Assembly (NCBI RefSeq): GCF_030013205.1
Contig: NZ_CP122648.1
Direction: 5' to 3' (one strand)
From: Escherichia coli
Lineage (GTDB): Bacteria; Pseudomonadota; Gammaproteobacteria; Enterobacterales; Enterobacteriaceae
DNA length: 64,000 nucleotides
Shown here: piece after piece, positions 45,697 through 45,989 of the stretch
How the letters are laid out: each line of letters opens with the position of its first letter
Numbering within the stretch: position 1 is the stretch's first letter
Notes under the pieces: generated by a model
Databases searched by the model: none
Told to the model about the DNA's origin: nothing
The model's input: the letters and a program-made list of their open reading frames with translations, nothing else
Program-made: the position numbers and the translations under genes

Positions 45697-45744
45697 AAAA
45701 AAAAGAGAAAAGTAAGCCGCCCTTTCAGGTGGATTACTTTTCTC
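45697..45744 (-). terminator. intrinsic terminator in the yqcE 5' leader (candidate attenuator)
   Basis: On - strand: GAGAAAAGTAA-loop-TTACTTTTCTC followed by 8 U; ends 25 nt upstream of yqcE start codon. Confidence 0.55.
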
Positions 45745-45747
45745 AGG

Positions 45748-45760
45748 TCTCTAGTAATTG
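45748..45760 (-). promoter_or_regulatory. conserved leader motif CAATTACTAGAGA (copy 1, yqcE leader)
   Basis: 11/13 identical to CAGTTACCAGAGA in ygcW leader; sits just 5' of the terminator and can pair with its 5' arm. Confidence 0.4.
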
Positions 45761-45850
45761 CAATAAGAAATAACATGGAAAGTAGTGGTGTTGTGTGAGA
45801 GTAATCACGCTTCTGCTTTTTAAAATTATTTGACAATTCGAATATCACAC

Positions 45851-45866
45851 TGTGATTACGATCACA
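45851..45866. promoter_or_regulatory. CRP binding site (perfect half-sites) in yqcE/ygcW divergent region
   Basis: TGTGA-ttacga-TCACA. Confidence 0.55.
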
Positions 45867-45900
45867 TTAGCGATTATGCCCTTATGATAAAAATTATCTC

Positions 45901-45913
45901 CAGTTACCAGAGA
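45901..45913 (+). promoter_or_regulatory. conserved leader motif CAGTTACCAGAGA (copy 2, ygcW leader)
   Basis: Located 7 nt 5' of the ygcW leader terminator; AGTTACC is complementary to GGTAACT in the terminator 5' arm. Confidence 0.4.
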
Positions 45914-45920
45914 TAATGAG

Positions 45921-45965
45921 AAAGGTAACTTCCCTCTCGCGGGGGAAGTTACCTTTCTTTTTTTT
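45921..45965 (+). terminator. intrinsic terminator in the ygcW 5' leader (candidate attenuator)
   Basis: Perfect 14-bp stem AAAGGTAACTTCCC / GGGAAGTTACCTTT, 8-nt loop, then 8 T; ends 25 nt upstream of ygcW ATG. Confidence 0.6.
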
Positions 45966-45989
45966 GCCTTACGGAAATTGGAGCTAACT

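Follow-up and report, generated by a model that had tools for sequence, protein, structure and literature searches.

Divergent leader terminators in the ygc cluster of Escherichia coli as candidate targets of the GlpP-family protein YgcP

The bgl operon is the classical case of a catabolic operon in E. coli that is controlled by protein-mediated antitermination. In this system, an inducer-controlled protein of the BglG/SacY/LicT family stabilizes a weak hairpin, the RAT, which shares sequence with the 5' arm of the leader terminator. HutP, TRAP, and PyrR read short purine-rich leader repeats (NAG/GAG) in the choice between terminator and antiterminator. In Bacillus subtilis, the PF04309 protein GlpP is encoded with its pathway and acts on glpD, glpFK, and glpTQ through a promoter-proximal intrinsic terminator in the 5' UTR; read-through into glpD requires GlpP (PMC9604022). 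Descriptions of the GlpP target in the open-access literature go no further than an inverted repeat or "binding site" in three B. subtilis leaders, and Rfam contains no model of it.

The corresponding cluster of E. coli K-12 consists of ten genes: ygcE, yqcE, ygcW, ygcU, ygcS, ygcR, ygcQ, ygcP, ygcO, and ygcN. It likewise encodes a PF04309 protein, YgcP, and carries promoter-proximal intrinsic terminators. The enzymes (a KduD-like SDR, a GlcD-like FAD oxidase, an ETF, and an FGGY kinase) belong to an uncharacterized, sugar-like pathway, the logic of which parallels that of the GlpP-controlled pathway (transporter, FGGY-type kinase, flavin dehydrogenase), with catabolite control layered on top. 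Unlike the B. subtilis pathway it is not one for glycerol, and the effector is therefore probably not glycerol-3-phosphate. Further differences are the Gram-negative host, where the mechanism is undescribed; catabolite control that is predicted to operate by class II CRP activation and not by CcpA; the head-to-head duplication of the element in one intergenic region; and its location right at the RNA 5' end, while in the glpD leader about 13 nt precede the element. The proposed stabilization of a weak hairpin overlapping a terminator arm would resemble the bgl system, but the BglG family carries CAT-PRD domains under phosphotransferase control in place of the PF04309 barrel, and its RNA motif is different. 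A BglG/SacY-type RAT system was rejected: neither a CAT-PRD gene nor a PTS component is annotated in the E. coli cluster, and YgcP contains PF04309 alone. As in the targets of HutP, TRAP, and PyrR, two xGAG(A) elements are spaced about 8-10 nt apart in the ygc leaders; the protein folds differ, however, and the ygc repeats lie in the loop of a covarying hairpin rather than in an extended single strand.

The divergent promoter-leader modules

The window, a stretch of 64,000 nucleotides of E. coli DNA that was analyzed as a whole, contains the divergent yqcE and ygcW operons (Table 1). A preliminary description had placed between them a leader terminator for each operon, a nearly identical 13-mer ahead of each terminator, and one perfect CRP site, and had pointed to the GlpP-family gene nearby. 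All of these elements were found at the positions given there, and two of the statements needed to be widened. The 13-mer is indeed present in both leaders, but the likeness extends beyond it: an alignment of the leaders covers about 115 nt, from the -10 region through the ATG, with 78% column identity. They are thus inverted duplicates of a whole promoter-leader module of about 150 bp, arranged head-to-head, each with a CRP site centered at -41.5, an extended -10, a 13-mer at which transcription starts, and a strong terminator whose end is 25 nt away from the ATG. In the ygcW leader, this distance separates the last T of the T8 run from the A of the ATG at 45990; the end of the U8 run is again 25 nt away from the yqcE ATG at 45672. 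Secondly, the perfect CRP site is present but is not the only one, as a second site, matching 9 of the 10 core bases, is its counterpart on the yqcE side.

Table 1. Coordinates of the leader elements, operons, and ygcP within the window
Feature	Position	Strand	Basis
13-mer CAGTTACCAGAGA, ygcW leader	45901-45913	+	sequence
Intrinsic terminator of the ygcW leader: hairpin 45918-45959 (19 pairs, 4-nt loop UCGC), T8 45958-45965	45918..45965	+	folding
Attenuated ygcW leader RNA, ~66 nt (start, 13-mer, hairpin, U tract)	45900..45965	+	RNA-seq, Term-seq, covariance model (80.5 bits)
ygcW antiterminator 5' strand AGUUACC, within the 13-mer	45902..45908	+	pairs with 45924-45930 in nascent-RNA fold; covariation
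Purine-rich loop AGAGA-UAAU-GAGAAA, proposed YgcP contact	45909..45923	+	conservation; inference only
ygcW antiterminator 3' strand GGUAACU, also middle of terminator 5' arm	45924..45930	+	folding, covariation
13-mer CAATTACTAGAGA, yqcE leader	45760-45748	-	sequence
Intrinsic terminator of the yqcE leader: stem 45744-45705, U8 45704-45697	45697..45744	-	folding
Attenuated yqcE leader RNA, 64 nt	45697..45760	-	RNA-seq, Term-seq, covariance model (77.2 bits)
yqcE antiterminator 5' strand AUUACU, within the 13-mer (45748-45760)	45753..45758	-	pairs with AGUAAU 45733-45738
yqcE antiterminator 3' strand AGUAAU, in terminator 5' arm	45733..45738	-	folding
CRP site 1 TGTGATTACGATCACA, center 45858.5, -41.5 from inferred ygcW start 45900	45851..45866	.	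sequence, published binding
CRP site 2 TGTGAGAGTAATCACG (CGTGATTACTCTCACA on - strand), center 45801.5, -41.5 from yqcE start 45760	45794..45809	.	sequence, conserved position
Extended -10 of ygcW promoter (TG-A-TAAAAA)	45885..45893	+	inferred from spacing to RNA 5' end and CRP site
Extended -10 of yqcE promoter (TG-T-TATTTC)	45767..45775	-	inferred from same spacing
Regulated operon yqcE (MFS transporter), ygcE (FGGY kinase)	42890..45672	-	annotation
Regulated operon ygcW (SDR), ygcU (FAD oxidase), ygcS (MFS), ygcR and ygcQ (ETF beta and alpha)	45990..51343	+	annotation
ygcP, proposed trans-acting antiterminator, 191 aa	51490..52065	-	PF04309 match

CRP site 1 is bound in vivo, as indicated by a ChIP-seq peak in ETEC (PMC4287617), and in vitro with a Kd of 1.7 nM (PMC12871828). 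yqcE-ygcE appears in a list of Crp-activated operons (PMC8085971). The starts at 45900 and 45760 were deduced from RNA-seq 5' ends (within 3 nt) together with the spacing of the extended -10 elements, the TGnTA of which is kept in orthologues. All leader copies scanned in the gamma-proteobacterial loci of the comparison described below (L003-L056 and L063) had a CRP-like site with 8-10 of the 10 core bases; it preceded the first C of the motif by 40.5-43.5 bp, in most cases by 41.5-42.5 bp. By the -41.5 geometry, each operon is assigned its own class II CRP-dependent promoter, that with site 2 being a prediction. The 77-bp gap upstream of ygcN contains neither the motif nor a terminator that could serve as a leader for ygcNOP.

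Leader RNAs and the alternative pairing

Folding of both leaders, as the preliminary description had proposed, yielded strong terminator hairpins. The 101-nt ygcW leader folded with -42.9 kcal/mol (z -6.4) and the yqcE leader with -28 kcal/mol (z -3.8); in neither case was any of 200 shuffles as stable. Published Term-seq data place Rho-independent 3' ends in both 5' UTRs, 38 nt before the ygcW ATG (40,640 reads) and 36 nt before the yqcE ATG, with intrinsic-terminator scores of 15.8 and 11.4 and Rho scores of 0.50 ("No") and 0.61 ("No"), respectively (Adams 2021, PMC7815308). Published RNA-seq contains matching short RNAs: ecr2774, 73 nt, maps to approximately 45898-45971 over the ygcW leader, and ecr2775, 63 nt, runs from base 1 or 2 of the motif to 1 nt beyond the U8 of the yqcE leader (Romero 2014, PMC4681348). 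The 5' ends of ecr2774(u+) and ecr2775(u+) coincide with the start of the 13-mer or differ from it by no more than 3 nt (PMC4681348). Transcription hence starts upstream of the hairpins; starts downstream of them, which would have spoken against attenuation, were not what these data gave. Together with the Term-seq ends, the short RNAs identify both hairpins as genuine leader terminators, and ecr2774 and ecr2775 are the same molecules as the attenuated leaders.

The short leader transcripts that had been anticipated thus both exist. The Term-seq ends fall within the lower part of the 3' arm, 11-13 nt short of where the U tract stops. This position suggests trimming. A northern blot was rejected as support for ecr2775: the listed probe has no match in the window, and its matches in E. 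coli genomes lie at another locus. We therefore relied on the RNA-seq and Term-seq coordinates. The two catalogues treat them as sRNA candidates or as premature 3' ends that lack an explanation; the "characterized element" column of the Term-seq study is empty for both ends, and no link to an antiterminator or to YgcP is noted there (PMC7815308).

The abundance of these RNAs, catalogued as candidate sRNAs and, for ygcW, represented by the large number of Term-seq reads, would also fit leaders that act as constitutive attenuators or as sources of trans-acting sRNAs, with control by CRP only and with the motif kept for RNA stability or sRNA function. We regard this explanation as very unlikely. 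A terminator that never opened would silence operons kept intact in many lineages, a stability element would not need the compensated pairing with the terminator arm that is described next, a B. subtilis terminator of this layout has been proven to be conditional, and no trans target has been proposed.

The preliminary description had claimed that the motif can pair with the 5' arm of its terminator. In agreement with this, AGUUACY of the 13-mer is complementary to RGUAACU in that arm, and the two structures are mutually exclusive. Folded to minimum free energy, the nascent 41-nt RNA adopts the antiterminator hairpin, with -6.7 kcal/mol for ygcW and -1.4 kcal/mol for yqcE; the yqcE stem is thus very weak on its own. 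The full leaders fold as terminators, with -32.4 and -20.7 kcal/mol, respectively. As the terminators are far more stable than the antiterminators, the leaders terminate by default, and preventing this requires a factor.

The alternative pairing is retained across 103 distinct leaders, comprising orthologous and paralogous copies. In the antiterminator helix, 93.7-94.2% of the cells were paired, compared with 15-54% in slid controls. The pair types were exchanged as GC 71/AU 28, UA 73/CG 24, and AU 99/GC 2, and 21 of 711 cells were U·G. Three to four pairs were changed on both sides in a compensatory manner, although these counts overstate independence, because the covarying changes reflect a handful of events (the split of the paralogues and a few lineages). 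The yqcE stem itself differs from the ygcW copy by two changes, both compensated, and distant stems of quite different sequence still pair (UUGCU/AGCGA, AUUGC/GCAAAU, GUUUC/GAAAC, and GGUC/GACC in B. subtilis glpD). Judged from the alignment, changes compatible with G·U pairing are a signature of RNA and not of a DNA palindrome. The pairing encloses a loop, AGAGA…GAGAAA, in which GAGAAA is found in 100 of the 103 leaders and xGAG(A/C) in nearly all. This loop, more than the 13-mer itself, is likely to be the site recognized by a protein.

Distribution of the element and of PF04309 genes

YgcP matches PF04309 (G3P_antiterm) over positions 1-173 of 173 (E 1.6e-62) and also matches PDB 3KTS (E 1e-27) and PDB 1VKF (E 8e-15), so that the assignment of a GlpP-family protein to the cluster stood. 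Its gene is situated 5.5 kb from the leaders. We compared 68 loci encoding a PF04309 homologue, 64 found via YgcP and four via other homologues, from Enterobacterales, Vibrio, Listeria, Bacillus, Clostridia, and Sporomusa. The same element preceded the operons in every locus that had the homologous gene cluster, which bore out the expectation that motif and hairpins would be conserved in relatives. At E<1e-4, a covariance model detected 110 copies in 1.3 Mb of sequence, and practically all of them preceded homologous operons; as the loci were fetched via the protein, this co-occurrence is a test in one direction, except in E. coli, where the element occurs nowhere else. Within the window, the model matched the two leaders only, and the degenerate 13-mer was found at these two places and at no other position of the 64 kb. 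The 98-nt leader was found at a median of two places per genome in 5,426 complete E. coli genomes, corresponding to these two copies. A mobile or repeat element was rejected in view of the two copies per E. coli genome and their fixed position relative to genes. Two loci (L046 and L032) possess a ygcP homologue without the element; the catabolic operons are apparently absent from them too.

The transcribed element is retained between Firmicutes and proteobacteria in spite of wholly different promoters, its orientation relative to the gene is constant, and it is always fused to a terminator. These features bear on the idea that the conserved sequence is a DNA operator, i.e. that the inverted repeat AGTTACC-N15-GGTAACT at +2 to +31 binds a DNA-binding repressor and that the terminators are incidental. 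The repeat does overlap the transcription start, a classical operator position. Fixed orientation, constant linkage to a terminator, and exchange of the promoter all argue against it, as do the U·G cells, which are complementary in RNA and not in DNA; moreover, no DNA-binding regulator is annotated in the E. coli cluster or in the Firmicute and Vibrio clusters examined. An operator is therefore exceedingly improbable.

The PF04309 gene is the sole regulator-like gene common to all clusters examined, and no other regulator-like gene is annotated in that of E. coli. This points away from antitermination by a factor other than YgcP, whether another RNA-binding protein or translation of a leader reading frame, which we consider very unlikely. 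In the ygcW leader, a frame of 23 codons begins with an AUG at 45916, crosses the hairpin, and extends to 45987. Attenuation by a leader peptide was rejected: an AUG is present at this position in only 48 of the 103 distinct leaders, so the peptide is not conserved, and it is missing from the yqcE leader. In addition, the transcription start is merely 16 nt upstream of the AUG, and the nearest purine tract lies only 2-3 nt from it.

Very small aptamers exist, the loop sequence is very highly conserved, and the structural switch is complete without a protein. A riboswitch could thus be envisaged, in which hairpin and AGAGA…GAGAAA loop bind a metabolite directly and YgcP is otherwise employed, e.g. 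as an enzyme-like (beta/alpha)-barrel. We attach little probability to this possibility, about the same as to a factor other than YgcP. With approximately 36 nt, a 7-bp stem, and an unstructured loop, the element is very small for an aptamer and matches no known riboswitch class. Furthermore, it tracks PF04309 genes across phyla and across two kinds of pathway (ygc-type and glycerol-3-phosphate dehydrogenase-type), and read-through in the B. subtilis glpD leader needs GlpP (PMC9604022).

The second kind of pathway was encountered in Lachnoclostridium and Faecalibacterium, where the homologues adjoin operons of the glycerol-3-phosphate oxidase/dehydrogenase type that are preceded by the same layout. 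The glpD 5' UTR of B. subtilis, a GlpP target confirmed by experiment, reads GGUC-CUGAGA-U-GAGGAGA-GACC, with GACC… beginning the terminator arm. The order stem-xGAGA…GAG-stem is that of the ygcW copy (AGUUACC-AGAGA-UAAU-GAGAAA-GGUAACU). The likeness is one of layout, and the sequence similarity is weak: against the enterobacteria-weighted covariance model, the glpD leader scored only 13 bits (E 0.6), although the match fell where it was expected.

Proposed action of YgcP

From these observations, we consider it probable that CRP drives initiation, that termination is the default, and that ligand-loaded YgcP attaches to the hairpin at the 5' end and so prevents formation of the terminator. Binding by YgcP, its dependence on a ligand, the identity of that ligand, and the role of the loop are the parts of this scheme that we infer. 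Each of the divergent operons would be transcribed from its class II CRP-dependent promoter with the site at -41.5, and since transcription starts at the 13-mer, the latter forms the 5' end of the RNA. By default, polymerase would halt at the leader terminator and yield an RNA of 64-66 nt, so that the operon would be off even with active cAMP-CRP. Upon induction, RNA bases 2-8 (AGUUACY) would pair with RGUAACU in the middle of the terminator 5' arm to give a weak hairpin at the 5' end of the RNA, the loop of which, AGAGA-N3-4-GAGAAA, has 14-15 nt. Hairpin and loop may then be bound and stabilized by YgcP when it carries a phosphorylated intermediate of the pathway. By analogy with GlpK, glycerol-3-phosphate, and GlpP, this intermediate would probably be the product of the FGGY kinase YgcE. 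The bound protein would sequester the 5' arm, the terminator would be blocked, and polymerase would read through into the genes.

The scheme provides a concrete, testable regulatory model for the ten-gene cluster, and a leader-reporter fusion could be used to find the inducer and, through it, the pathway substrate. If it is true, E. coli has a second protein-dependent antitermination regulon besides bgl, gated by CRP and sensing a phosphorylated metabolite, and the two published "sRNAs", together with the two unexplained Term-seq 3' ends, can be reread as attenuated leaders, the products of the off state. GlpP-type antitermination would be extended to Gram-negative bacteria and combined with class II CRP activation. 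According to the preliminary description, such regulation is not known to have been described for this locus, and we likewise found no account of it in the open-access literature for ygcP, the other ygc genes, or the PF04309/GlpP family; binding or genetic data on YgcP were not found there either. The ygc leaders were found neither in Rfam nor in the searchable literature: Rfam 15 returned nothing relevant in this region of the window (E<=10) or in six related loci (gathering threshold).

We also lean toward a broader reading, namely that the hairpin AGUUACY-AGAGA-N-GAGAAA-RGUAACU represents a class of cis-regulatory RNA not catalogued before, which the entire PF04309/GlpP family recognizes as its cognate target in Firmicutes, Negativicutes, Vibrionaceae, and Enterobacterales, and that it has been horizontally transferred with the protein and the entire catabolic cluster. 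On this reading too, E. coli would possess the second regulon mentioned above. The alignment also offers a comparative consensus of the family's RNA target, in which the stem covaries and the loop is conserved. A metagenome scan with the glpD leader yielded a single contig of 3.76 kb, which carried only glpK' and glpD.

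Two promoter-leader modules between yqcE and ygcW

The 901 bases around the yqcE/ygcW divergent region were 100% identical to several complete E. coli genomes, and the locus was present in 5,072 of 5,426 genomes. The paired 13-mers, hairpins, U runs and 25-nt spacings claimed by the preliminary description were all located there, the A of each start codon lying 25 nt past the end of the U run. When folded as it had proposed, both hairpins outdid every shuffled sequence (0 of 200 as good in each case; z = -6.4 for ygcW and -3.8 for yqcE). A terminator scan of 900 bp returned 8 terminator-like sites against 0.9 expected, and a degenerate form of the 13-mer occurred exactly twice in 64 kb. 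Aligned in gene direction, the two leaders shared 78% column identity over about 115 nt from the -10 region to the ATG, and the likeness continued upstream of the -10 region. The yqcE and ygcW leaders are copies of one module.

Features of the yqcE/ygcW region and transporter regions of compared loci
Feature	Position	Strand or direction	Remark
yqcE-ygcE		leftward	annotation
ygcW-ygcU-ygcS-ygcR-ygcQ		rightward	annotation
ygcP-ygcO-ygcN	beyond ygcQ	opposite strand	annotation
CRP site 1, TGTGATTACGATCACA	45851-45866		ygcW copy
CRP site 2, CGTGATTACTCTCACA	45794-45809	read on -	yqcE copy
ygcW 13-mer, CAGTTACCAGAGA	45901-45913	+
ygcW leader hairpin	45918-45959	+	19 bp
ygcW leader T8 run	45958-45965	+
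ygcW ATG	45990	+
yqcE 13-mer, CAATTACTAGAGA	45760-45748	-
yqcE leader hairpin	45744-45705	-
yqcE leader U8 run	45704-45697	-
yqcE ATG	45672	-
CRISPR array	about 41859-42254		by offset from L001:8460-8855
BCCT/OpuA-type transporter	L058:14695-16305
BCCT/OpuA-type transporter	L060:4375-5946
BCCT/OpuA-type transporter	L068:8715-10286
BCCT/OpuA-type transporter	L071:12773-16053

A perfect CRP site, TGTGATTACGATCACA, is present as had been described, but it is not a single site shared by both operons, since the yqcE copy has a predicted CRP site of its own, CGTGATTACTCTCACA. Each module carries a TG-extended -10, and the spacing predicts starts at 45900 (ygcW) and 45760 (yqcE), thus placing both CRP centers at -41.5. 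Every leader copy scanned in the gamma-proteobacterial loci encoding YgcP homologues (L003-L056, L063) had a CRP-like site matching 8-10 of the 10 core bases, 40.5-43.5 bp (mostly 41.5-42.5 bp) upstream of the first C of the motif. As each copy has its own CRP site and extended -10, in a geometry kept in orthologues, the region consists of two class II CRP promoter-leader modules back to back rather than of operons around one shared site. A 2007 study (PMC1794230) had already predicted site 1, which coincides with a ChIP-seq peak in ETEC (PMC4287617) and is bound by CRP in vitro (estimated Kd, 1.7 nM; PMC12871828), and yqcE-ygcE is on a list of Crp-activated genes (PMC8085971); thus, the CRP part of the finding is already known. 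For the predicted site 2, no report was found in the literature searched.

The CRISPR array listed in the table is annotated between queE and ygcE in the best-matching genome, just downstream of yqcE-ygcE. Between ygcP and ygcQ, whose ends converge, there are REP-like palindromes (…GCCTGATGCGACGCTTGACGCGTCTTATCAGGC…) at about 51330-51470 (-).

Termination within the leaders

The coordinates of two published candidate sRNAs, ecr2774(u+) and ecr2775(u+), were shifted to NC_000913.3 by +1978, which we take to be the offset between the two MG1655 versions; the outcome was internally consistent with the sequence. Global RNA-seq had recorded ecr2774, of 73 nt, upstream of ygcW and ecr2775, of 63 nt, upstream of yqcE (Romero et al. 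2014, PMC4681348). The former spans from 3 nt ahead of CAGTTACCAGAGA to about 5 nt beyond the U run; the latter begins with base 1 or 2 of CAATTACTAGAGA and ends 1 base beyond the U8 run. Term-seq in LB (Adams et al. 2021, PMC7815308) detected a 3' end in each leader: the ygcW end, 38 nt upstream of the gene, had 40,640 reads and the yqcE end, 36 nt upstream, had 1,557. Their Rho scores were 0.50 and 0.61 and their intrinsic-terminator scores 15.8 and 11.4, respectively, and neither carries a Rho-dependent mark or an entered regulatory element. The RNA-seq coordinates place the RNA 5' ends at or near the motif, not downstream of the hairpins, as the preliminary description required. Thus, the leader terminators work in vivo and the RNA begins at the motif. 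The two candidate sRNAs and the two unannotated Term-seq ends are newly reinterpreted here as attenuated leaders.

The dominant Term-seq ends, at about 45953 (+) and 45708 (-) (MG1655 2900311(-) and 2900556(+)), fall 11-13 nt short of the end of the U tract, in the A·U-rich lower 3' arm of both hairpins, whereas the RNA-seq coverage extends to the end of the U run. This offset probably reflects exonucleolytic trimming back to the G+C-rich upper stem; possibly, the lower stem is instead unformed in vivo. ecr2775 is said to be northern-confirmed (PMC4681348). The probe ORL43 'ecr2775(u+)' (CTCAAGGGGAGAAAACTTAGGGCCTCTATG, Table S9 of that paper) is absent from the window; across about 4,000 E. 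coli genomes it matches a single site, unrelated and without annotation. Either the oligonucleotide table is mislabeled or the blot shows another RNA, and the blot was therefore left out as evidence.

The complete leaders folded as terminators (-32.4 kcal/mol for ygcW and -20.7 kcal/mol for yqcE), whereas the minimum-free-energy structure of the nascent 41-nt RNA was in both cases the pairing of the motif with the terminator 5' arm that the preliminary description had put forward: AGUUACC(45902-45908):GGUAACU(45924-45930) at -6.7 kcal/mol for ygcW and AUUACU:AGUAAU at -1.4 kcal/mol for yqcE. By the calculated energies, termination is the default, and the antiterminator can compete only if something stabilizes it. 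Default intrinsic termination, which yields RNAs of 64-66 nt, agrees with the abundance of short RNAs in LB and in media with glucose. That the leaders are constitutive attenuators or generate sRNAs is less well supported than regulated read-through and seems unlikely.

The conserved alternative hairpin

With YgcP as query, 64 loci were fetched from one-genome-per-species contigs. They included Escherichia, Citrobacter, Klebsiella, Enterobacter, Serratia, Rahnella, Pantoea, Erwinia and others (YgcP identity 67-99%), Listeria sensu lato, one Bacillus and one Thalassobacillus (54-59%), and Lachnoclostridium and Faecalibacterium (46-49%). Four more (Vibrio hannami, Clostridium sediminicola, Sporomusa, Fodinisporobacter) came via other homologues. 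The element was searched for by regular expression and then with a covariance model built from 84 distinct copies, which gave 110 matches at E<1e-4 in 1.3 Mb and only two true matches in the window. Motif and hairpin precede the homologous operons, usually in two copies per locus, so the conservation in orthologous loci on which the original proposal hinged was borne out. There was no covariance-model match in L015, L019 and L025, whose contigs stop short of the divergent region, in L033, whose two copies have collapsed to a single bidirectional hairpin, or in L046 and L032, where the catabolic operons are apparently absent; copies in the Listeria loci, L058, L065 and L066 fell short of E<1e-4 in the large search.

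Among 103 distinct aligned leaders, 93.7% of antiterminator cells were paired, a MAFFT alignment agreeing, against 15-54% when the partner strand was slid by 1-3 columns. Pair counts were GC71/AU28, UA73/CG24, AU99/GC2 and CG101, with 21 U·G cells; these are cells rather than events and represent an estimated five to ten independent changes. Pairing in the terminator outer stem was 92.8%, and both partners had changed in seven pairs. The alternative hairpin, which takes in 7 nt of the terminator 5' arm, is thus conserved and covarying. Both differences between the antiterminator stems of the two E. coli copies are compensated (GUUACC/GGUAAC vs AUUACU/AGUAAU). The U partner of the motif A in the yqcE copy is mismatched in the terminator stem; here, antiterminator pairing was kept over terminator pairing. 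In more distant copies, pairing persists with other sequences, as UUGCU/AGCGA in Listeria, Bacillus and Fodinisporobacter (with GUG…CAC or GG…CC extensions), AAUUACU/AGUAAUU in Sporomusa, AUUGC/GCAAAU in Lachnoclostridium and GUUUC/GAAAC in Faecalibacterium. Both the U·G cells and the unvarying orientation relative to the gene favor a structure formed by RNA over a palindrome in DNA, and a DNA operator, also less well supported, is very improbable.

Unlike the stem, the loop is conserved in sequence: GAGAAA, which doubles as the base of the terminator stem, occurs in 100 of the 103 copies, and nearly all have xGAG(A/C) 3-5 nt before it. Of the two leader copies in Serratia, Pantoea, Erwinia and Vibrio (L034, L041, L050, others, L068), one has a 3-nt insertion between stem and first GAGA (GUUACU-GAA-AGAGA, GUUACU-GUC-UGAGA), so this distance is flexible, with the GAGA-to-GAGAAA spacing kept.

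Some loci deviate. Limnobaculum eriocheiris (L033:13883-13954) has one hairpin with an A run on one side and a T run on the other (AAAAAAAAAGAGAAAAGTAAC…TTACTTTTCTCTTTTTTTTT) and has lost both 13-mers and the entire promoter region, which looks like a deletion by recombination of the inverted copies that would leave both operons promoterless. Serratia microhaemolytica (L046) and Enterobacterales bacterium AwEntero (L032) have a ygcP homologue, no leader element that we found, and neighboring ORFs unlike the SDR/oxidase/kinase operons; either the regulator is an orphan or the cluster has decayed.

A 23-codon ORF (AUG AGA AAG … UAA; 45916-45987 (+)) opens in the ygcW antiterminator hairpin loop, spans the terminator and ends 2 nt short of the ygcW ATG. 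Leader-peptide control was rejected because no more than 48 of 103 leaders have the AUG, which the yqcE copy lacks. Control by a leader peptide or some other factor is less well supported and improbable.

YgcP as the predicted antiterminator

YgcP is a full-length PF04309 protein and matches both solved 'glycerol uptake operon antiterminator' structures, 3KTS and 1VKF, confirming ygcP as a GlpP-family gene. Firmicute and Vibrio loci have the same neighbor gene set as E. coli: a KduD-like SDR, one or two GlcD-like FAD oxidases, ETF alpha/beta, an FGGY kinase and a transporter. The PF04309 gene is the sole regulator-like gene common to the clusters examined. A protein-independent riboswitch is less well supported and hardly probable.

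Antitermination of a catabolic regulon through a GlpP-type protein is already known from B. subtilis, where the glpD 5' UTR renders foreign promoters GlpP- and glycerol-dependent (PMC9604022). This UTR contains …GGUC-CUGAGA-U-GAGGAGA-GACC-ACAGC…, with GAGAGACCACAGC… as terminator 5' arm, and its nascent fold is the corresponding hairpin (-6.1 kcal/mol). The enterobacteria-weighted covariance model hit the right place at only 13 bits; in architecture the E. coli leaders clearly resemble this validated target, in sequence weakly. By this analogy, we read the E. coli leaders as predicted targets of a GlpP-family protein.

Quite probably, YgcP loaded with a phosphorylated intermediate would bind the 5'-terminal hairpin and the AGAGA…GAGAAA loop and prevent the terminator from forming, so that polymerase reads on. 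More loosely, the ligand may be the product of the FGGY kinase YgcE, because of the analogy with GlpK, glycerol-3-phosphate and GlpP, and the YgcU/ETF flavoenzyme might take GlpD's role. ygcP itself belongs to a separate operon, ygcNOP, without such a leader; the 77-bp gap that separates ygcN from queD upstream (53635-53711 (-)) holds no motif, terminator or obvious CRP site. The E. coli regulator is thus apparently not autoregulated through the element, whereas in Listeria the glpP homologue lies within a motif-controlled operon.

The Lachnoclostridium and Faecalibacterium homologues adjoin a glycerol-3-phosphate oxidase/dehydrogenase-type operon, a conventional glycerol regulon, in front of which the same layout recurs in diverged form. 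Homologues from Listeria sensu lato, Bacillus, Clostridium, Sporomusa and Vibrio share 54-62% identity with YgcP (L057-L064 and L068-L071 vs window 42890-53634). This identity, the shared gene set and the shared leader element suggest that cluster, regulator and RNA target moved together between Firmicutes and gamma-proteobacteria. In both groups the element starts within a few bases of the predicted transcription start, whereas the promoters differ (CRP plus extended -10 in gamma-proteobacteria vs TTGACx-17-TATACT in Firmicutes), suggesting that the promoters were replaced after transfer (sigma-A -35/-10 vs CRP class II).

No Rfam family was found for the leader element and no paper describing this regulation in the open-access literature. 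The element is a real and well-supported regulatory element. New are the Gram-negative (E. coli) instance of GlpP-type antitermination with two predicted targets, the comparative definition of its RNA target as a covarying stem plus conserved loop, the combination with class II CRP activation, and the apparent joint travel of protein, RNA element and pathway between Firmicutes and Proteobacteria.

The ygc-like clusters of Bacillus, Thalassobacillus, Vibrio and Fodinisporobacter have a transporter of the BCCT family or OpuA type (glycine-betaine-like) instead of the MFS transporters, which may hint at the nature of the pathway substrate.
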